A stretch of 63,666 nucleotides of DNA. Source: Bacillota bacterium (GTDB taxonomy: Bacteria; Bacillota; Limnochordia; JAAZLZ01). Location of the stretch: NCBI GenBank assembly GCA_012521755.1, contig JAAYLV010000105.1:1-63666 (forward strand), in the 5' to 3' direction. The translations under genes were made by a program, and so were the position numbers. Under the pieces are notes generated by a model. The model saw only the letters and a list, made by a program, of their open reading frames with translations. It made no database searches and was not told the origin of the DNA. Each line of letters opens with the position of its first letter. The stretch's first letter is position 1. Below are positions 19,155-53,739 of the stretch, piece after piece.

Positions 19155-19432
19155 AAAAAAAAGACTTCCCGTCCACAAGGGACGGGAAGCTAACTCCCGC
19201 GGTACCACCCAATTTGGCCTAATGGCCCACCTCAAATAGGATACCTCCCGCTTTGCAGGACCGATATCCCCTTCCTTGTAACGGCGGAAGACCCGATGGG
19301 ACCTACTGCTATCCCTTCAGCCCCACAACTCCAGGGAGAACTTCGACGGACCCTCCGGTGCCGGGCTCCCACCTAGCCCCCAGCTCTCTGGGACCTTCCA
19401 AGCCCGCCTACTTTTCCCTATCATCGCTTTCA
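19155..19432 (-). promoter_or_regulatory. T-box leader riboswitch controlling aroF-pheA, with a possible Phe (UUC) specifier
   Basis: Read on the minus strand: GA motif 'AGCGATGA', 'CAGAGAG', a distal-loop-like 'AGGTGGGAG', 'CCGTTAC', the T-box sequence 'AAATTGGGTGGTACCGCGGGAG' (about 19196-19217), then the terminator 'GCTTCCCGTCCCTTGTGGACGGGAAGTC' plus T8 (19155-19190). Confidence 0.85.
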
Positions 19433-19517
19433 GCGTATAAGATTACATTACAGTTTACCAGAATCTCTCCCGAAGGCAAGGCCGAAAAAGCCCTTTTTGA
19501 GAGGGAAATTAATCTCC

Positions 19518-40449: not shown

Positions 40450-40584
40450 CTACGCGCAAAGGCGCTTGCGTCCCTTTGCCCGCCGCCGCTTCAGGACCCG
40501 TCGCCCACCGGGCGTGGCCATGCGAGCTCGGAACCCGTGGGTTTTTTTCCGCTTCCTTATATTAGGCTGGAAAGTCCTTTTCAC
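40450..40584 (-). CDS. rpmH: 50S ribosomal protein L34 (not in the ORF track because it is shorter than 60 aa)
   Basis: Hand translation of the minus strand gives (GTG)[51 protein letters not shown] lies upstream. Confidence 0.93.
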
Positions 40585-40629
40585 CCAGCCCCACCCCCTT
40601 CAACGCCATTTAGCCAAAATGCCATTAAG

Positions 40630-40659
40630 ATTATAGCCCAGGGCTTCTAATCATGTCAA
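40630..40659 (-). promoter_or_regulatory. Sigma-A-type promoter candidate for rpmH-rnpA
   Basis: Minus strand: TTGACA (40659-40654), an 18-nt spacer, then TATAAT (40635-40630). Confidence 0.5.
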
Positions 40660-40763
40660 GCAATGGCATAAACCCGGCTTTTTTTACCCTTTTTCACCCC
40701 TCCTTTCCTCCCCTGGCCCCTTCCCTTGACTAGATCCGTCGATCATAGTACGATGAAAGCAGT

Positions 40764-41218
40764 TGTGGAAAATTCTGCGCCCGTCACCTTTTCCAGGTCC
40801 CTTTTCACCACTGCTGCTTTGGACTTAGAGAGTTTTCCACACAATGTGGACAACCTTGTGGATATCATCCAATCGCCCACGGGGGCGACCTTTGGCCCTG
40901 TGGATGAGAGTTATGCACAGGGCCGCTGTGACTATTTCAGCTCTTTTCCTGGGGCCGAGGCCCCCTTGGACCGCCAGGAGGGCAACAGACATGGTCGCAC
41001 ACTGTGTGGATATTCCCCCTTTCTTCCGGCCGCTGCGGGGAGCAGGTCCCTTTTTCCACGACCTGTGGAAAACCTGTGTATACTGTGGATTACCTCCGGG
41101 GTCTTCTTTCCACAGCGTCCCTCCCCGTCGACCTTACAAGTCTCGCCAGGGCCATGTGGAAGGGGTTTTTCGGCTTTTTCCATAGTTGTCCACAACAGGG
41201 GGCAACCCCTGTGGATAA
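40764..41218. promoter_or_regulatory. oriC part I: upstream DnaA-box cluster (at least 13 boxes)
   Basis: Nine-mers with 3 or fewer mismatches to TTATCCACA/TGTGGATAA at 40764, 40833, 40845, 40857, 40899, 41005, 41052, 41064, 41084, 41106, 41155 and 41186, plus a perfect TGTGGATAA at 41210-41218. Two head-to-head pairs have 3-nt spacers (40833-40853 and 41052-41072). Confidence 0.9.
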
Positions 41219-41275
41219 CTTTGTCGGGTTTTTCACAAATGAGCCTTGCTCGCCCCGCAGGAAAGTAGGGAGGTC

Positions 41276-42136
41276 ATGGGCTTTCTCGCTTCACTTTTCC
41301 GTCGATCAACCGATCCTTCCCGCCGCCCCTTGCCCAGGCGGCTAGCGGCGCGGCTGGCAGTGTATGACTCCCCGGGGGTCGCCCCCCGCCTCGTCGAAGT
41401 CCAGGGGACGAAAGTGCAAGAATTCATGGATGAGCTCGCGGCCACCACCTATTCCCTGGCCCAGGAAAAGGGCGGCCGCATTCCTTTCACCGCGCTGAAA
41501 GAGGTGGTGGAAAACCTGATCCATGCCGCCTTCCACGAGGTCACTATTACCATTTCCCCCGACGGCAACACTATTCGCATCGCCGATGGGGGCGGCGGCA
41601 TCCCCGATAAGGAAAAGGCCCTCATCCCCGGCTACTCCAGCGCCGCGGGCGAAATCAAAAGGTACATCAAAGGGGTGGGGTCGGGCCTGCCGGTGGCCCA
41701 GGAGGCCCTCCAGGCCTTGGGAGGGATCTTGGACATCGACGACAATTTGAGCGGGGGAGCAGTCGTCACCTTGTCCGTCGACCCTGTGGAAAAGTCTCCG
41801 CCGGGGCCGCAAGTTCCGGCAGGAGATGGGACAGGCCAGACAGAATATAGTACCCGCACCGTTGACGACGGCGCCGATGGGCCCTGCCTGCACCCCGCAG
41901 CTGCGGCGGCGGGGCTTTCGCGTCGACAGGAAGAAGTCCTCATTCTCCTTGCGGAACATGAAGAGATCGGGCCTTCATCGGTGGCCCGCAAAGCAGGCAT
42001 CAGCCTGAGCACCGCCTATCGGGACCTTGTCTACCTGGAAGAACTTGGTCTTGTGGAGTCTAAACCCAACGGCAAACGGGTGCTCACTCCCGCGGGAGGG
42101 GCGCTGTTGGCAGCCCTGCGGGGCACAGACCGTTGA
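41276..42136 (+). CDS. GHKL (HATPase_c-like) ATPase domain fused to a C-terminal winged-HTH. Uncharacterised gene lying between the oriC box cluster and dnaA.
   Basis: N-box-like 'EVVENLIHAAF', G1 'IADGGGGIP', G2 'IKGVGSGLPVA'. A Pro/Gly/Ala-rich linker follows. wHTH-like 'RRQEEVLILLAEHEEIGPSSVARKAGISLSTAYRDLVYLEELGLVE'. The stop lies 27 nt before the dnaA ATG. An alternative TTG start exists at 41246. Confidence 0.7.
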   Translation: MGFLASLFRRSTDPSRRPLPRRLAARLAVYDSPGVAPRLVEVQGTKVQEFMDELAATTYSLAQEKGGRIPFTALKEVVENLIHAAFHEVTITISPDGNTIRIADGGGGIPDKEKALIPGYSSAAGEIKRYIKGVGSGLPVAQEALQALGGILDIDDNLSGGAVVTLSVDPVEKSPPGPQVPAGDGTGQTEYSTRTVDDGADGPCLHPAAAAAGLSRRQEEVLILLAEHEEIGPSSVARKAGISLSTAYRDLVYLEELGLVESKPNGKRVLTPAGGALLAALRGTDR

Positions 42137-42162
42137 GCGCGCCGCCCTTAGGAGGTACTAGC

Positions 42163-43482
42163 ATGAGTGAACAGCTTGACTTAATCTGGGAAAAGACCCT
42201 CGGCCTCCTCAGGCAGGAGCTGCCCAAGCCTAGTTTTGACACCTGGCTCAAGGGCACCAAGGCCTGTTCTTTCAGCGACGGACGCCTTACCGTTGAGGTG
42301 CCCAATGAATTCGCCCGGGACTGGGTCGAGGCCCGCTACAAAGAAGATCTGCAACGGGCCCTTCAGCAGGTGGTGGGGGATAATTGGGAGATCCTGTTCG
42401 TCATCCCCCAGGCCGAAGGACCCGCCCCCGCGCCGCGAACTATCCCGGAGGCGGCCCCCGCGGCCTTGAACCCCAAGTATACCTTCGATACTTTTGTCGT
42501 CGGCAACGGCAATCGCTTTGCCCACGCCGCCTCCTTGGCCGTGGCGGAAGCTCCCGCCCGGGCCTACAACCCCCTGTTTCTGTACGGGGGCGTTGGCCTT
42601 GGCAAGACCCATTTGATGCAGGCTATCGGCCACTACGCGCAGGTCCATCATCGCCAGCTGCGGGTCGTTTACGTCTCCTCGGAGACCTTCACCAACGATC
42701 TCATCAGCGCGATCGCCCGCAAGTCGATGCAAGAGTTCCGGGGCAAATACAGGAACGCCGACATCCTCCTCATCGACGACATCCAATTCGTCGCCGGGAA
42801 AGAATCGACCCAGGAGGAGTTCTTCCATACCTTCAATTCCCTCTATGAGGCGAACAAGCAGATCGTCATCACCTCCGATCGGTCTCCCAAGGACATCCCC
42901 ACCCTCGAGGAACGGCTCCGCTCCCGCTTCGAGTGGGGCCTCACGGCCGATATTCAGCCTCCCGATGTGGAAACCCGCATCGCCATCCTGAAGCAGAAGG
43001 CGAAGGCCGATGGGATCACCATCGACGATGAAACTCTCTCTTACATTGCATCCCAAGTGGAGTCCAACATCCGGGAGCTGGAGGGCGCCTTGAATCGGGT
43101 CACGGCTTACGCCTCCCTCCAGGGGACAGCCATCACCTTGACCCTAGCCCAAGACGCCCTGAAGGACATCCTCTCCTCCCAAGAGAAGCGGCCTCCCACC
43201 ATCGCCCGCATCCAAGAAGTCGTTGCGGAGTACTACGGAGCCACCACCGCGGACTTGCAGAGCAAGAAAAGAACCAAAGCCGTCGTCTTTCCCCGGCAGG
43301 TGGCCATGTATCTTTGCCGCGAGCTCACCGACTCATCCCTCCCCCAAATCGGCGACCACTTTGGCGGCCGGGATCACAGCACGGTGATCCACGCCTGCGA
43401 TAAGATTGCCAATGACTTGACGAAAGACCCTTCCTTAGCCGCGGACGTGCAAGAACTGATCCGGATCCTAAGAAGTTCTTAA
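42163..43482 (+). CDS. dnaA: Chromosomal replication initiator protein DnaA
   Basis: 'LWEKTLGLL', Walker A 'GGVGLGKTHLMQAIG', 'LLIDDIQF', DNA-binding 'FGGRDHSTVIHA'. ATG at 42163 with AGGAGG 7 nt upstream. Confidence 0.97.
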   Translation: MSEQLDLIWEKTLGLLRQELPKPSFDTWLKGTKACSFSDGRLTVEVPNEFARDWVEARYKEDLQRALQQVVGDNWEILFVIPQAEGPAPAPRTIPEAAPAALNPKYTFDTFVVGNGNRFAHAASLAVAEAPARAYNPLFLYGGVGLGKTHLMQAIGHYAQVHHRQLRVVYVSSETFTNDLISAIARKSMQEFRGKYRNADILLIDDIQFVAGKESTQEEFFHTFNSLYEANKQIVITSDRSPKDIPTLEERLRSRFEWGLTADIQPPDVETRIAILKQKAKADGITIDDETLSYIASQVESNIRELEGALNRVTAYASLQGTAITLTLAQDALKDILSSQEKRPPTIARIQEVVAEYYGATTADLQSKKRTKAVVFPRQVAMYLCRELTDSSLPQIGDHFGGRDHSTVIHACDKIANDLTKDPSLAADVQELIRILRSS

Positions 43483-43484
43483 CT

Positions 43485-43684
43485 TGTGGATACCATGTGG
43501 AAGGGATGTGGAGGGCTCCAGGCCTGTGGACGATGTGGAATAACGTACCTAATTTTCCACACCTTTTTCGACACAAATTGCCCTTGCCAGCTATGGCCGC
43601 AATGGCCTTTTCCACAAATCCACAGCCCTTACTACTGCGACTACTGCTCTTATCTATTTATTTAGGGATGGTGATTTTTCCACA
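43485..43684. promoter_or_regulatory. oriC part II: dnaA-dnaN DnaA-box cluster with trinucleotide repeats and an AT-rich candidate unwinding element
   Basis: Boxes at 43485, 43496 and 43507 (11-nt phasing), 43525, 43534, 43553, 43608, 43616 and 43676. CTA/TTA-type triplets at 43629-43652. AT-rich 'tcttatctatttatttag' at about 43648-43665. Confidence 0.85.
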
Positions 43685-43722
43685 CTCTCCCGCAAAACCA
43701 TGATCAGAAAGGGTGCTATACC

Positions 43723-44823
43723 ATGAAGGTGATTTGCAGGCAGGACGAGTTGATGCGAGGGGTCAGCATCGTCGAACGGGCCGTCAGCACCCGGGACATC
43801 CGGCCCGCGTTGATGGGCATTCAGCTCGAGGCCGTCCCTGGAGAGCTTCGGCTCGCCGGGTGCGATTTGGAAATGAGGATAGAATATGTCATTCCCGCGG
43901 AGACTAGCCGCGAGGGGAAAGCCCTGGTGGAAGGACGCTACTTTTCCGCCATTGCCCGCCGCCTGCCCGATGGCATGGTGGAGCTGGAAGAAGATGCCGG
44001 GCTGCTCCATGTCCGGGGCGGCCGGGCGGATATGTCCCTCCATTTGATCGTGGGGGAGGAGTTTCCCGAGCCGCCGGCGGGGGATTACCTGACCAGGTTC
44101 ACTTTGGATCAGGAACTGTTGAAGACCATGATCAAGCAGACGGCTTTTGCCACCGCAGATGCCGATGAACTGCGGGTTTTCATGCGGGGGATTCTCTTTG
44201 AAGCTGGGGATGGTCACCTCCACCTGGTGGCCACCGACAGCAGCCGCCTTGCCGTCCGGCGGGCTGCCGCAGCTGATCTGCCGCCCCTGCGGGCCCTGGT
44301 GCCGGCCCGGGTGTTGCAGGAGCTGGCCAGGTTCCTCCCCTTTGATGGGGCAGATGCCCTAGAGATCGCGGTGGGGAGCAATCAAATCGCCATGCAGGGC
44401 GGGGGGGCAGCTTTTTATTCGCGCCTTTTCGAGGCGGCTTTCCCCGATTACCGGATGGTGCTGCCGAAGGAGCTCCCCACCAAAGTGGTGGTGGATCGGA
44501 AAGCTTTGGAAGAGGCCATCGACAGGGTCAGCCTGGTTGTGCGCAAGGGGCCGGCGGTGGTGGATGTTGCCCTAAAGGGGGGCGTCATCCAGCTCCTTTG
44601 TCACAGCAAAGAGGTTGGCAGGGGCTTTGATGAGCTTGCCGCAAGGCAAGAAGGTCCCGACATTGAGATTAGCTTCCAGGCCAGGCTCATCACGGAAGCC
44701 CTGAAGGCCCTCGATGATCATGACGAGGTGAGCATGGCCTTTACCTCGGAGACAGGACCGATGGTCCTCAGCATTCCGGGGAAAGATGATTACCTGTATC
44801 TGTTGATGCCTGTCCGGGGTTAG
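43723..44823 (+). CDS. dnaN: DNA polymerase III beta sliding clamp
   Basis: 366 aa. 'MKVICRQDEL...V..AVS.R', three-domain length, position after dnaA, C-terminal 'YLLMPVR'. Confidence 0.95.
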   Translation: MKVICRQDELMRGVSIVERAVSTRDIRPALMGIQLEAVPGELRLAGCDLEMRIEYVIPAETSREGKALVEGRYFSAIARRLPDGMVELEEDAGLLHVRGGRADMSLHLIVGEEFPEPPAGDYLTRFTLDQELLKTMIKQTAFATADADELRVFMRGILFEAGDGHLHLVATDSSRLAVRRAAAADLPPLRALVPARVLQELARFLPFDGADALEIAVGSNQIAMQGGGAAFYSRLFEAAFPDYRMVLPKELPTKVVVDRKALEEAIDRVSLVVRKGPAVVDVALKGGVIQLLCHSKEVGRGFDELAARQEGPDIEISFQARLITEALKALDDHDEVSMAFTSETGPMVLSIPGKDDYLYLLMPVRG

Positions 44824-45075: not shown

Positions 45076-46191
45076 GTGTATATCACTGCCCTGACGGCTA
45101 GGTCCTTTCGCAACTATGACTCTTTGGCGGTCGGTTTTTCCCCCGGGGTAAACATCATCGTTGGGGCTAATGCCCAGGGAAAGACGAATCTGTTGGAAGC
45201 CGTCCATTTCCTGGCCACGGGCCGCTCCCACCGGGCGGGCCGGGATGGGGAGCTGGTCAAGTGGGGGAGGGACTTGGCCTTTCTCCGGGGCGAGGTGAGC
45301 TCCTTTGGCGGCTCCCGCTCCATCGAAGCACAAATCCCCGCCGCGGGGAGAAAGAGCATCAAGGTGGACGGGACGGAGCTTAGGCGGTTGAGCGATCTAT
45401 TCGGGATCTTCCAGATCGTCATGTTCACCCCTGATGACCTGCAGCTCATCAAAGGGTCCCCGGGTCTTCGGCGCCGCTACCTCGACATGCAGATCTGTCA
45501 GATCAGCCCCCTTTACCGCCACTACCTGCAGCGCTACAACCAGGTCCTGCGGCAAAGGAACAAGCTGCTGGAGCGAAGGGAGGCAAGGAGCCTCCCCGTG
45601 TGGGATGAACAGCTGGTCCGCTTTGGGAGCGCAGTGATCCGCTATCGGCTGAGGGCCGTTGAGGTTCTGTCCCCCTTCACCCAAAGGCACTACCGGGCCA
45701 TCGCCGGGGAGGGTGAGGAAATGAAGCTTGCCTATCAGCCTTTCTGGGCCAGGGAGGGGGAGGGCCCCCCTTGGTCGGAGGATGATATTCAAGGGCTCTT
45801 CCGGGAGGAGATAAGGCGAGTCCGGGAGGATGAGCTGCGGCGGGGCCAGACCCTCGTTGGACCCCAGCGGGATGATCTGGTCTTTGCCATCGCCGATCGT
45901 CCAGCCAAGTCTTTTGCCTCCCAGGGACAGCAGCGAAGCGGGGTTTTGGCCTGCAAGCTCGCGGAGCTGGATTACATCCAGCGGGAAAGCGGGGAGTATC
46001 CGCTCCTCCTGTTGGATGATGTGGCATCGGAGCTCGATGATGAGCGCAGGGAGCGCTTTTTTGCCGGGGTGCCCGAAGGGGTGCAGCTTTTGCTCACGAC
46101 GACAAGTCTTCGGCCATTGATGCCGATCTTAGCCCACGGTCAGGTGTTTCGCATCGCTAATGGCATCATCAGGGAAGGGAAAGGAGGGTAA
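45076..46191 (+). CDS. recF: DNA replication and repair protein RecF
   Basis: Walker A 'GANAQGKTNLLEA', 'GPQRDDL', 'SQGQQRS', Walker B 'LLLDDVASELD'. GTG start. Confidence 0.95.
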   Translation: MYITALTARSFRNYDSLAVGFSPGVNIIVGANAQGKTNLLEAVHFLATGRSHRAGRDGELVKWGRDLAFLRGEVSSFGGSRSIEAQIPAAGRKSIKVDGTELRRLSDLFGIFQIVMFTPDDLQLIKGSPGLRRRYLDMQICQISPLYRHYLQRYNQVLRQRNKLLERREARSLPVWDEQLVRFGSAVIRYRLRAVEVLSPFTQRHYRAIAGEGEEMKLAYQPFWAREGEGPPWSEDDIQGLFREEIRRVREDELRRGQTLVGPQRDDLVFAIADRPAKSFASQGQQRSGVLACKLAELDYIQRESGEYPLLLLDDVASELDDERRERFFAGVPEGVQLLLTTTSLRPLMPILAHGQVFRIANGIIREGKGG

Positions 46192-46195
46192 CAGA

Positions 46196-46474
46196 TTGTT
46201 CTTGCATTTAGGCGGCTGTGTTGTTGTCCCTTTGGAGGAGGTGGTGACCATCGTCCAAATTGGACGGGAGGCATCATCGCCCGATACGGCGGCCTTCCTC
46301 AAGGCTGCAGAAAAAGAAGGACTAGTGATGAATATTGCTCCCGATCAGGCCAGTTCCGCCACCGTGACGACCAAGGGTGTCTACCTGTCATCCATCTCGG
46401 CGGCAACTTTGAGCAAGCGCGCGAGGGACCTTGCGCCCCTGCGGGGCGGGCCCCTTGGGGCCACCGGAAGTTGA
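46196..46474 (+). CDS. remB: DUF370 protein (YaaB/RemB-like)
   Basis: 'LHLGG..VVPL.EVV.I' and conserved placement between recF and gyrB. The likely start is the TTG at 46196, just after the recF stop, with GGAGGG upstream. Confidence 0.75.
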   Translation: MFLHLGGCVVVPLEEVVTIVQIGREASSPDTAAFLKAAEKEGLVMNIAPDQASSATVTTKGVYLSSISAATLSKRARDLAPLRGGPLGATGS

Positions 46475-49417
<2,943 letters not shown>

Positions 49418-49436: not shown

Positions 49437-51867
<2,431 letters not shown>

Positions 51868-51878
<11 letters not shown>

Positions 51879-52296
51879 AAGCAAAGGGTGTCGGACCTTC
51901 GATCACGGAGGCGATGCGGGCCTTTTTGCCTGGGGCCCCCGCCTTGAAGATGTGTTCGAACAGGCTTTTCTTGGCCTTGTCGACTACATCGTCGAAGGCC
52001 AACAGGTCCGTCCCCAAGAGGAGCGCAGTATACGCCTTGAGGCCCCCGATGGAGAGAGTCTGCTCGTTGAGTGGCTCGGCGAGGCCCTCTTCCTCATCGA
52101 TGGGGAAGGCTGGCTTCCCGGCCGGGTTAAAGTCAAGGTCGGGGAGGGATTTAGCCTCGAGGCGAAAGTGTGGGGTGAGGCAATCGACCCTGAGTGCCAC
52201 TGGATCATCAGGGACGTTAAGGCGGTGACCTACCACGGCTCAAAGCTCCTTCGCGAAGGGGATGCGTGGCAGGCTAAGGTCGTCTTGGATCTCTAG
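51868..52296 (+). CDS. Archease (RtcB activator/chaperone)
   Basis: '[16 protein letters not shown]......L.DYI', 'VKAVTYHG'. The start overlaps the gyrA stop. It sits immediately upstream of rtcB. Confidence 0.8.
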
Positions 52297-52311
52297 TTGG
52301 AGGTGGTGCCC

Positions 52312-53739
52312 ATGGTTTGGGATTTAGAAAAGCTCGATGAATATCGCTGGCAGATACCCCGGGGTTATAAACCGGGGATGCTTGTCCCCGGCCTCATTTT
52401 CATCGATGGGGAGGAGCTGGCCAACCTCAAAGAGGAGGGCCAGGCCCTCGAGCAGGTGGCCAATGCCGCCTGCCTCCCGGGGATCGTCGGCTTCGCCTAT
52501 GCCATGCCCGACATCCACACCGGCTACGGTCTTCCCATCGGCGGGGTGGTGGCGACAAAACTCCCCGATGGGCTGATTACCCCTGGGGGCGTTGGCTACG
52601 ACATTAATTGCGGCGTCCGTCTCCTGGCCACTCCGTGGCGGGAGGAGGACTTGGAGGATAAATGGTCGGATTTGGCCGATGAGCTTTACCGGGCCATTCC
52701 CAGCGGATTGGGGGATAAGGGCGGTCTTAAGATCGCCCAGGGGGATCTGGACCGGGTCCTTTGCCAAGGGGCGGCCTGGGCGGTGGAGCAGGGCATGGGC
52801 AGTCAGGAAGACTTATCGATGAGCGAAGAGGAAGGGGAGATGGCCGGCGCCGACCCTGACGCGGTCAGCCAAAGGGCCAAGAAGCGGGGCCAAGGACAGC
52901 TGGGGACCTTGGGTTCGGGGAACCACTTCGTCGAGGTGCAGGTGGTGGACCGGATCTACCGGGAAGAAGAAGCCAGGGTCATGGGGCTTTCCCAGGGGCA
53001 GGTGGTCGTCATGATTCATTCGGGATCCCGGGGCCTGGGCCATCAAGTCTGCAGCGACTACACCCGCCGGATGGTGGAGGCCATGGGCCGGTACGGCATC
53101 AAGCTGCCAGATCGGCAGCTGGCGGGGGCGCCCTTGAGCAGCCCCGAGGGGAAGCGGTATTTCGGCGCGATGGTGGCCGCGGCCAATTATGCCTGGGCCA
53201 ACCGGCAAGTCCTCACCCACCGGGTCCGGGAGGCCCTGCGCCAGGTGATGGGCCATGGGGAGATCCGGGTAGTCTGGGATGTGGCCCATAACATCGCCAA
53301 GATCGAAGAGCATATAGTAGGTGGAGAGGAGCTCAAGCTTTGCGTGCACCGCAAAGGAGCGACCAGGGCCCTTCCCGGTGGCCATAGCCTCCTCCCGGAG
53401 GTATATCGGGGAATGGGCCAGCCGGTCCTGGTCCCCGGGGATATGGGGAGCGGCTCTTATGTCCTGGTTGGCAATCGAGGCGAAGGCTTTGCCTCGGCCT
53501 GTCACGGCGCCGGACGGCGCCTTAGCCGGGGAGAGGCGAAAAGGCTTCTGCAGCGGGATGAGGTTTTCGCGGAGCTGGCCGAAGCCGGAGTTGAGCTTCG
53601 GGCCGCCAGCCGCCAGGTGGTGCTGGAAGAAGCCCCAACGGCCTACAAGGATGTGGATGAGGTGGTCCGCATCTCGGAAGGTGCAGGCCTTACGCGGCAG
53701 GTCCTGCGTCTTGCCCCGCGGTGCGTTATCAAAGGATGA
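52312..53739 (+). CDS. rtcB: RNA 3'-phosphate ligase RtcB
   Basis: 'MPDIHTGYGLPIGGV', 'GYDINCGVR', 'LGSGNHFVEVQ', 'HSGSRGLGHQ', 'AHN'. ATG at 52312 after GGAGGTGG. Confidence 0.93.
   Translation: MVWDLEKLDEYRWQIPRGYKPGMLVPGLIFIDGEELANLKEEGQALEQVANAACLPGIVGFAYAMPDIHTGYGLPIGGVVATKLPDGLITPGGVGYDINCGVRLLATPWREEDLEDKWSDLADELYRAIPSGLGDKGGLKIAQGDLDRVLCQGAAWAVEQGMGSQEDLSMSEEEGEMAGADPDAVSQRAKKRGQGQLGTLGSGNHFVEVQVVDRIYREEEARVMGLSQGQVVVMIHSGSRGLGHQVCSDYTRRMVEAMGRYGIKLPDRQLAGAPLSSPEGKRYFGAMVAAANYAWANRQVLTHRVREALRQVMGHGEIRVVWDVAHNIAKIEEHIVGGEELKLCVHRKGATRALPGGHSLLPEVYRGMGQPVLVPGDMGSGSYVLVGNRGEGFASACHGAGRRLSRGEAKRLLQRDEVFAELAEAGVELRAASRQVVLEEAPTAYKDVDEVVRISEGAGLTRQVLRLAPRCVIKG

Follow-up and report, generated by a model that had tools for sequence, protein, structure and literature searches.

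A conserved gene encoding a predicted ATP-binding, DNA-binding protein directly precedes dnaA in a Bacillota genome and in related loci of several phyla

Does the reading frame that lies between rpmH and dnaA in this Limnochordia genome encode a real protein and, if so, is its position immediately in front of the replication initiator gene accidental, or could the protein be a regulator of chromosome replication? In order to answer these questions, we analysed a window of 63,666 nucleotides (the whole of the stretch studied, contig JAAYLV010000105.1), for which the original prediction had proposed an uncharacterized fusion of a GHKL ATPase and a winged helix-turn-helix (wHTH) lodged inside the origin. 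The features that we identified are collected in Table 1, where the gene under study is referred to as X.

Table 1. Features of the rpmH-dnaN region, in window coordinates
Position	Strand	Feature	Details
40450..40584	-	rpmH (ribosomal protein L34)	Divergent upstream neighbour; 44-aa product
40630..40659	-	Promoter-like site for rpmH	TTGACA-18-TATAAT; 12 of 12 matches, a consensus match only
40726..40754	+	Candidate promoter of the X-dnaA transcript	TTGACT-17-TACGAT; role inferred
40764..41218		DnaA-box cluster I	11 boxes with <=1 mismatch to TTATCCACA
40833..40865		Triple DnaA-box module	TTTTCCACA-CAA-TGTGGACAA-CCT-TGTGGATAT
41268..41273	+	Shine-Dalgarno sequence of X	GGGAGG
41276..42136	+	X, GHKL-wHTH gene	286 aa, including the stop codon; ATG start, TGA at 42134-42136
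41342..41791	+	Predicted Bergerat-fold (GHKL) ATP-binding domain, res 23-172	Invariant: N-box E76/E79/N80/H83/A84, G1 D104xG106xG108, lid P118-G119, G2 G133-V-G-S-G-L138, T165
41792..41893	+	Predicted disordered, low-complexity linker, res 173-206	
41894..42133	+	Predicted wHTH, res 207-286	Invariant: R217, Q218, G232, P233, A247, R249; recognition helix S-L-S-T-A-Y-R-D-L
42137..42162	+	Spacer between X and dnaA, 26 nt	Contains the dnaA Shine-Dalgarno sequence AGGAGG (42150-42155)
42163..43482	+	dnaA	Pfam DnaA_N, Bac_DnaA and Bac_DnaA_C
43483..43722		dnaA-dnaN spacer	DnaA-box cluster II (four boxes with <=1 mismatch, 43485-43684) plus AT-rich TTATCTATTTATTTA; likely unwinding region
43723..44823	+	dnaN	

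We first asked whether X is a genuine gene. Many long spurious reading frames overlap this region of 60% GC. The N-terminus, M-x-x-F/L, matches that of the homologues, which supports the ATG start over the upstream TTG at 41246, and the Shine-Dalgarno sequence is invariant in the close relatives. Homologues number in the thousands, with E-values down to 1e-179, and dN/dS is 0.11-0.13 against relatives of 88-93% identity, so that a chance open frame or a decaying remnant is refuted. The first 22 codons showed very high nucleotide conservation in close relatives, although the RNA fold there was no better than that of shuffled sequences (z = 0.24). A DnaA box inside the gene (41785-41793) is attributed to chance, as boxes within X coding regions are rare and scattered, with no conserved position.

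In order to define the domains of the protein, we combined profile searches, an alignment of 30 sequences from several phyla and an AF2 model (mean pLDDT 82). The motifs named in the original prediction are present: EVVENLIHAAF (res 76-86), DGGGGIP (res 104-110) and GVGSGL (res 133-138). Pfam assigns HATPase_c (PF02518) to residues 72-169 (E 8e-11; 42.7 bits against a cutoff of 26.4), the N, G1 and G2 motif residues are invariant in the alignment, and the model predicts an alpha/beta sandwich with pLDDT mostly 87-96 over residues 23-172. The linker is modelled with pLDDT 41-61, varies in length and sequence, exceeds 150 aa in some members, and has the highest dN of any region (0.13-0.17). The C-terminal region matches HTH_IclR (30.3 bits against 22) and TrmB (27.0 against 25.6) at residues 212-269, and is predicted to form an H-H-H-beta-beta-H arrangement with pLDDT 89-97 (helices 216-227, 233-240 and 244-256; strands 260-262 and 268-270); most of its recognition helix is invariant. 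The N-terminal extensions of long family members contain no Pfam domain and are probably miscalled starts or low-complexity sequence.

The location of the gene was examined next. The whole window holds 25 DnaA boxes, against 6.1 expected, and the GC skew changes sign at about 42-44 kb. In 33 non-redundant related loci, the rpmH-X spacer holds 7.2 boxes per kb, compared with 0.2-0.4 per kb in the coding regions, and related loci hold 6.9 per kb in the dnaA-dnaN spacer; in our window the latter spacer also contains more degenerate TGTGGA cores. X may be said to lie inside the origin, as originally proposed, only in the sense of a bipartite oriC like that of B. subtilis. The distance from its stop codon to the dnaA ATG is 26 nt rather than the 27 nt first given, and no terminator-like site was found between 40553 and 43800. 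The candidate promoter is the only plus-strand promoter-like site between rpmH and dnaN, and its -35 hexamer and most of its -10 region are invariant in the three close relatives.

This arrangement is not peculiar to one genome. About 389 representatives (50%-identity clusters) match the family profile at E<=1e-30, and the named members are MAGs labelled Limnochordia, other Bacillota, Armatimonadota and Actinomycetota. In 83 of 83 related loci with at least 250 nt of downstream sequence, dnaA follows X on the same strand, and is itself followed by dnaN; one apparent exception was resolved by its gene calls. The same order was found in every gene-call context examined, namely Limnochordia, Actinobacteria, Armatimonadota, Bacillota and Clostridia MAGs, and a divergent 472-aa member. 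The median gap in 82 related loci is 30 nt, with 69 of 82 gaps <=50 nt, and no DnaA box occurs in it. By tblastn, rpmH lies divergently upstream in 72 of 73 loci with enough upstream sequence; however, the link is to dnaA rather than to rpmH, as in one related locus the X-dnaA pair sits next to unrelated genes and in another a further gene separates it from rpmH. Mean pairwise identity is 48.6% for X and 53.2% for DnaA, and the pairwise identities correlate (r = 0.73). In contrast, the four closest DnaA-bearing Bacillota loci checked lack the gene and have rpmH and dnaA separated only by noncoding DnaA boxes, so it is not universally required. The tblastn searches found no copies in plasmids or phages, searches against PADLOC and PHROGs gave only generic domain hits, and our literature searches found no paper describing the gene.

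We also looked for a DNA site that the protein might recognize. K-mer (7-10 nt) and inverted-dyad enrichment over 33 non-redundant rpmH-X spacers and 27 dnaA-dnaN spacers, with and without masking of DnaA boxes, returned only DnaA boxes, their variants and promoter-like words. A head-to-head and tandem triple-box module (TTTTCCACA-NN-TGTGGAAAG-NNN-TGTGGATAA), equivalent to that in Table 1 but with a 2-nt first spacer, occurs in 17 of the 33 loci at a fixed distance of 250-345 nt from the start of the X alignment, and resembled a 20-bp palindromic operator. However, a comparable module occurs in an X-less control origin and, although there are only four controls, we attribute it to DnaA and not to X. 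The motif TT[AT]TCAACA is likewise enriched, but it replaces canonical boxes in some lineages and also occurs in X-less controls, and is a DnaA-box variant.

Comparison with known proteins places the ATP-binding domain closer to the catalytic (CA) domains of KinB/NtrB-type histidine kinases (PDB 3d36, 4biw and 3dge) than to SpoIIAB/RsbW, the other resemblance suggested at the outset. The closest sequence and fold relatives are KinB (3d36, E 1.5e-7), followed by CpxA, HK853, PhoQ, BCK and PDK, Foldseek gives a probability of 1.0 to CpxA, HK853, PhoQ and PDK, and the N, G1, F-like (PGFSTA versus PFFTTK) and G2 (GxGxGL) boxes are shared. As originally noted, however, there is no DHp/His or receiver domain: no HisKA-type or receiver hit appears at E<=1, no conserved His precedes H83, and residues 23-64 are predicted as a beta-hairpin plus one helix that belong to the sandwich. 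There is also no sensor or transmembrane part, and no response regulator is encoded nearby, the neighbours being rpmH/rnpA and dnaA/dnaN in all contexts. SpoIIAB and RsbW share a minimal stand-alone GHKL domain of about 150 aa with a Glu four residues before the Mg-binding Asn, and their nucleotide state controls partner choice, but X scores 16.1 bits against a cutoff of 135 for TIGR01925, has no PF13581 hit at E<=1, lacks STAS or sigma-factor neighbours in any locus examined and carries a DNA-binding domain. Among the GHL ATPases (MutL, GyrB, Hsp90 and MORC), MutL TIGR00585 gives 21.9 bits against 180 and PF13589 gives 17.3 against 25, and the disordered linker directly follows the GHKL domain, without a transducer (S5-like) domain or its lysine.

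The top Foldseek hit is DIP2311 of Corynebacterium diphtheriae (PDB 3lmm), whose alignment spans both the GHKL-like domain and the C-terminal wHTH (284 columns, E 4.7e-8), so the order of a Bergerat domain followed by a wHTH is shared. Nevertheless, identity is only 19% and the rmsd is 14 A, so the domain orientation differs; X is shorter (286 against 477-556 residues), has no extra N-terminal domain, and has no AlbA_2 or PF13749 hit at E<=1 of the kind expected of a COG2865-type (AlbA_2 + HATPase_c_4 + wHTH) protein, the group to which DIP2311 probably belongs. The wHTH itself is most similar to those of the Csa3/CasR CARF-wHTH regulators (TIGR01884, E 3.4e-7; PADLOC CasR, E 2.2e-8), which share the logic of a nucleotide-ligand sensor fused to a wHTH, although their sensor is CARF, their context is CRISPR loci and the scores are far below family cutoffs (29.8 bits against 60.2). 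No homology to the DnaA/oriC regulators Soj, YabA, SirA, DnaD, Hda, DiaA/HobA, SeqA or CtrA/MtrA/Spo0A appeared in the Pfam hits, the best 25 of 43 NCBIfam hits or the best 60 PDB hits. As a functional analogy we propose Soj/ParA of Bacillus subtilis (PMC5295017), a small ATP-switch protein whose nucleotide-dependent dimerization and DNA binding appear to tune DnaA activity at oriC, although its fold is unrelated (a deviant Walker-type P-loop) and it is encoded in the soj-spo0J (parAB) operon. The response regulators CtrA, MtrA, HP1021 and Spo0A likewise seem to gate initiation from within or next to DnaA-box regions, but there the ATP-binding module would sit on a separate kinase and signal by phosphotransfer to a receiver, while in X it is fused directly to the wHTH. 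The GHKL ATPase HtpG (Hsp90), reported to interact with DnaA in E. coli (PMC4595432), is a precedent for a Bergerat-fold ATPase contacting DnaA; however, it is a large three-domain chaperone, unrelated beyond the fold, that is not encoded at the origin and has no wHTH.

Taken together, it seems somewhat more likely than not that X is the first cistron of a conserved X-dnaA(-dnaN) transcription unit and encodes a one-component, nucleotide-gated DNA-binding protein. In this model, the gene is transcribed from the DnaA-box-laden promoter region that drives dnaA, so that the protein is made in step with DnaA; ATP, or the ATP/ADP state, in the GHKL pocket controls its self-association or conformation; that state determines whether the two wHTH domains of a dimer engage DNA in the origin/dnaA-promoter region; and binding there modulates dnaA-operon transcription and/or DnaA assembly at the bipartite oriC, coupling initiation to cellular energy state. 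The regulatory role is an inference from gene neighbourhood and domain content, in the absence of biochemical or expression data, and co-transcription is inferred only from spacing and the absence of signals, whereas the ATP gating, DNA target and effect on initiation are likewise inferred, no site specific to X-bearing origins having been found. In addition, isolated histidine-kinase CA domains bind ATP but do not appear to dimerize on it as GHL ATPases do, and ATP-driven dimerization is therefore only an analogy.

Other interpretations are possible but appear less likely. The protein might be a DNA-tethered GHKL kinase or partner-switching factor, working like SpoIIAB/RsbW or PDK/BCK, that binds and/or phosphorylates a protein on Ser/Thr/Tyr, most obviously DnaA, with the wHTH serving only to localize the enzyme to the origin. 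The kinase relatives described above, the invariant Glu of E76-x-x-x-N80, the minimal size of the domain, source annotations reading ‘anti-sigma regulatory factor (Ser/Thr kinase)’ in some cases and a conserved surface formed by the invariant R26, Y30, D31 and P37 of the first hairpin, outside the canonical ATP-binding motifs, are in favour of this view, but the failure to match the SpoIIAB family, the lack of any conserved partner gene nearby or identified phospho-acceptor, and the apparent lack of precedent for phosphorylation of DnaA by a GHKL kinase make it unlikely. Somewhat more doubtful is an architectural or segregation factor, an ATP-operated clamp or bridge of the MutL/MORC/Soj type that loops or pairs the two box clusters or anchors the origin. 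The N-box resembles MutL (xxxVKELVENSLDA versus ALKEVVENLIHA), weak MutL N-terminal hits cover residues 70-115 (E 7e-5 and 2.6e-4 in two searches), the gene sits between two box clusters and the linker is flexible; against this, besides the missing transducer domain and MutL membership, the G2/F-box region is histidine-kinase-like and no repeated non-DnaA motif was found in either cluster.

It is similarly improbable that X is an ordinary transcription factor for an unrelated regulon, riding in the dnaA operon to obtain growth-rate or cell-cycle-coupled expression. Such one-component wHTH regulators seem to be very common and no operator was found in the neighbourhood of X, but a purely passive passenger would not be expected to keep this exact position across phyla, to stay with dnaA when rpmH linkage is lost or to be nearly as conserved as DnaA.

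A bolder possibility, less likely than not but more likely than these alternatives, is that a large part of the Terrabacteria (Armatimonadota, deep-branching Actinomycetota, Limnochordia and other uncultured Bacillota) uses a previously unrecognized, vertically inherited, ATP-dependent partner of DnaA, made from the same mRNA, that acts directly on the initiator or on orisome assembly, for example by phosphorylating or sequestering DnaA or by ATP-gated occupation of DnaA-box DNA; it would then be a new class of replication-initiation control.

Control of DnaA is understood mainly in E. coli, B. subtilis and Caulobacter, and most phyla have no identified DnaA regulators. The family described here, of about 260-290 aa, is small and soluble-looking, about as conserved as DnaA, and carries an intact nucleotide pocket and an almost invariant DNA-reading helix. 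Its fixed position on the 5′ side of dnaA in every informative locus examined, together with these features, makes it a concrete, testable candidate for the missing regulator in largely uncultured lineages, which include abundant soil Armatimonadota and anaerobic-digester Limnochordia. It would also be a rare case of a histidine-kinase catalytic domain used without a phosphorelay, as a direct nucleotide sensor on a transcription-factor scaffold.

In order to establish whether the gene preceding dnaA (X), which encodes a GHKL ATP-binding domain joined to a winged helix-turn-helix (wHTH), had been correctly described, we first examined its reading frame and surroundings. The ORF is real; it encodes 286 aa, is preceded by a GGGAGG Shine–Dalgarno sequence, and its N-terminus, MGFL..., matches the M-x-x-F/L start of the homologues. 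The original prediction gave the distance to the dnaA ATG as 27 nt, but the spacer is 26 nt and contains only the dnaA ribosome-binding site. A consensus scan found no terminator-like site from 40553 to 43800, and only one + strand promoter-like site between rpmH and dnaN, lying upstream of the DnaA boxes. The whole window holds 25 DnaA boxes (≤1 mismatch) against 6.1 expected from shuffles, and the GC skew changes sign at about 42-44 kb. The gene order is jag-yidC-yidD-rnpA-rpmH, then, divergently, X-dnaA-dnaN-S4-recF-remA-like-gyrB-gyrA, and X therefore lies between the two box clusters of a B. subtilis-like bipartite origin. The dnaA-dnaN spacer has a run of TGTGGA cores and two TTTTCCACA boxes, followed by a trinucleotide-periodic stretch (TACTACTGCGACTACTGC) and an AT-rich TTATCTATTTATTTA; this looks like a box/DnaA-trio/DUE unwinding module, and we infer that the spacer is the more likely unwinding site.

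Positions of the features in and around the dnaA region (window coordinates, unless a related locus is named)
Feature	Position	Strand	Remarks
T-box leader	19175-19433	-	Rfam RF00230, 125 bits; the only Rfam match in the window at gathering threshold
Sigma-70 consensus upstream of rpmH	40630-40659	-	Perfect match, TTGACA-18-TATAAT
Promoter-like site	40726-40754	+	
DnaA boxes, upstream cluster	40764-41218		Eleven boxes (≤1 mismatch)
Triple DnaA-box module	40833-40865		The window's version
Segment identical in two relatives	41259-41341		17 nt before the start codon and first 22 codons of X
X	41276-42136	+	ATG at 41276, TGA at 42134-42136
dnaA start codon	42163		ATG
dnaA-dnaN spacer	43483-43722		
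DnaA boxes, downstream cluster	43485-43684		Four boxes (≤1 mismatch)
RemA-like gene	46160-46474		After recF
gyrB	46553-49417	+	954-aa product interrupted by an intein (Pfam Intein_splicing, res 528-816)
Archease and RtcB RNA-ligase gene pair	51823-53739	+	Directly downstream of gyrA
Genes flanking X-dnaA in L018	L018 1-4000		Aminotransferase and D-Ala-D-Ala ligase (Ddl), upstream
PEBP-family gene in L091	L091 2929-3438		Between rpmH and X

Pfam placed HATPase_c at res 72-169 (42.7 bits, cutoff 26.4) and the wHTH models HTH_IclR and TrmB at res 212-269, both above cutoff, whereas no HisKA, receiver or PF13581 hit appeared even at E≤1. NCBIfam has no family for the protein, and gave only partial, sub-threshold hits to histidine-kinase C-termini, the MutL N-terminus, SpoIIAB and the Csa3 wHTH. 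An AlphaFold2 model built on a 30-sequence alignment, with a mean pLDDT of 82, predicts a six-stranded, three-helix alpha/beta sandwich over res 23-172, so that the N-terminal hairpin and helix belong to the Bergerat fold, followed by a disordered linker at about res 173-206 and a wHTH at 207-283. A Foldseek search of the PDB with this model returned as its top hit 3lmm (DIP2311), a structural-genomics protein whose GHKL-like domain and C-terminal wHTH both align (284 columns, 19% identity), with many histidine-kinase CA domains and PDK following. By sequence, the best solved relatives are the KinB, YycG and HK853 CA domains, at E about 1e-7.

Across members from several phyla, the invariant residues are E76, E79, N80, H83 and A84 in the N-box, D104/G106/G108 in G1, P118-G119, G133-V-G-S-G-L138 in G2, and T165; in the wHTH, R217, Q218, G232, P233, A247 and R249 are invariant, within a nearly invariant S-L-S-T-A-Y-R-D-L recognition helix. 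The nucleotide pocket and the DNA-reading head are thus both under strict constraint. No conserved His precedes the N-box.

The family is large, with at least 2217 clusters at 90% identity matching at E≤1e-20, and about 389 representatives at 50% identity, among 1.84 billion representatives, matching at E≤1e-30. All named members come from MAGs labelled Limnochordia, Bacillota, Clostridia, Armatimonadota, Actinomycetota or Ca. Oleimmundimicrobium, and carry only generic names such as ‘ATP-binding protein’, ‘histidine kinase’ or ‘anti-sigma regulatory factor’. Of the family members of 370-490 aa (P0087, P0129, P0130, P0142, P0205 and P0217), some have very long linkers between the ATPase and wHTH domains, so that the profile matches in two stretches, and others have N-terminal extensions with no Pfam domain. 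No copy exists in the plasmid or phage collections searched.

The gene-call contexts of six diverse members all read rpmH, then, divergently, X-dnaA-dnaN. In order to examine this linkage more widely, we scanned metagenomes with the alignment, which confirmed 496 relatives among the first 600 pattern matches; the best 80 loci were kept, and the window's DnaA, DnaN, RpmH and RnpA were compared by tblastn with all loci (numbered with the prefix L). In the tblastn results, dnaA starts immediately downstream on the same strand in 82 of the 83 loci with at least 250 nt of downstream sequence; the single exception, L010, is a tblastn truncation resolved by its gene calls, so the true figure is 83 of 83. 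The median spacer is 30 nt, and 69 of 82 spacers are ≤50 nt. We found rpmH divergently upstream in 72 of 73 loci with enough upstream sequence; in the one locus without it (L018), X-dnaA has unrelated neighbours, and in L091 a further gene is inserted between rpmH and X. The linkage is therefore to dnaA. In 35 non-redundant loci, DnaA boxes are dense upstream of X (7.2 per kb) and between dnaA and dnaN (6.9 per kb), but are absent from the X-dnaA spacer and at background level in the coding regions. Further along, many X-bearing loci (for example, L005, L007, L009 and L010) encode DciA right after recF, where the window instead has the RemA-like gene and no dciA in this stretch, while the gyrB intein is shared with the Limnochordia relative L004.

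The four closest DnaA proteins outside this clade, with about 60% identity, come from three Firmicutes MAGs and from the cultured Anoxybacter fermentans, and in all four rpmH and dnaA are separated only by a box-rich spacer. This agrees with the arrangement that the original prediction described for almost all Firmicutes, and shows that the gene is specific to certain clades.

Across 27 non-redundant pairs, the mean identity is 48.6% for X and 53.2% for DnaA, and the pairwise identities correlate (r = 0.73), which is consistent with co-inheritance and with constraint nearly as strong as that on the initiator itself. Against relatives of 88-93% identity, dN/dS is 0.11-0.13, dN being highest in the linker and lowest in the wHTH. 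The segment spanning the start of the gene is 100% identical in the related loci L001 and L011 (dS = 0, against about 0.37-0.5 in the other regions of the gene); the encoded tail is variable across the family. The predicted RNA structure is no better than that of shuffles, although a local hairpin pairs the Shine–Dalgarno sequence with codons 2-4.

We also looked for a DNA site specific to X, but k-mer and dyad enrichment returned only DnaA boxes. A striking triple-box module, TTTTCCACA-NN-TGTGGAAAG-NNN-TGTGGATAA (forward box, 2-3 nt, reverse box, 3 nt, reverse box), is conserved across phyla, lying 250-345 nt upstream of the start of the X alignment in 17 of 33 non-redundant loci (L005, L013-L015, L019, L042 and others); however, a similar module occurs in the X-less origin L092. 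A TT[AT]TCAACA variant behaves as a lineage-specific DnaA box and also occurs in the controls. In the rpmH-X spacers of some lineages (L048, L086, L088 and L090), the canonical TCCACA box core is almost absent and TTTTCAACA / TTATCAACA takes its place in the same arrangements, suggesting a shifted DnaA-box specificity. It cannot be excluded that an X operator, if there is one, overlaps DnaA boxes.

At domain level, the protein belongs to HATPase_c and to the wHTH superfamily. Defining features of the sensor histidine kinases were looked for and not found, and the same was the case when those of SpoIIAB/RsbW, of the GHL ATPases (a transducer domain and a family profile above cutoff) and of the COG2865-type proteins were sought. 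We found no homology to any known DnaA regulator among the profile and structure-database hits examined, and full-text literature searches found no description of a gene of this kind at dnaA, the only tangential precedent being a reported HtpG-DnaA interaction (PMC4595432).

The gene thus encodes an intact Bergerat nucleotide site fused to a wHTH, in operon-like juxtaposition with dnaA and downstream of the DnaA-box cluster that flanks dnaA promoters in related Bacillota. From this we infer that X is co-transcribed with dnaA from a DnaA-controlled promoter, that its nucleotide state gates self-association or conformation, and hence DNA binding by paired wHTH domains, and that its target is the dnaA promoter or oriC region, which would tie dnaA expression or orisome assembly to energy status. 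We consider this reading somewhat more likely than not. Among the alternatives, a DNA-tethered GHKL kinase or partner-switch acting on DnaA seems unlikely, although less so than an ATP-operated architectural clamp, and it is doubtful that X is merely a passenger regulator of another regulon; a chance ORF is excluded.

The original observation, of a GHKL-wHTH fusion gene lodged immediately upstream of dnaA, is confirmed, and its interpretation as a possible regulator of initiation or of dnaA expression is supported as far as sequence analysis can take it. The proposed mechanism would follow the logic of Soj/ParA acting on DnaA, and of oriC-binding response regulators such as CtrA, MtrA and Spo0A, but would be compressed into one polypeptide without a phosphorelay. 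X would be a nucleotide-gated one-component regulator, a known kind of protein; the gene founds an uncharacterised, widespread family that is locked to dnaA and is a candidate origin regulator, and it is possible, though less likely than not, that it represents a new class of direct DnaA control.
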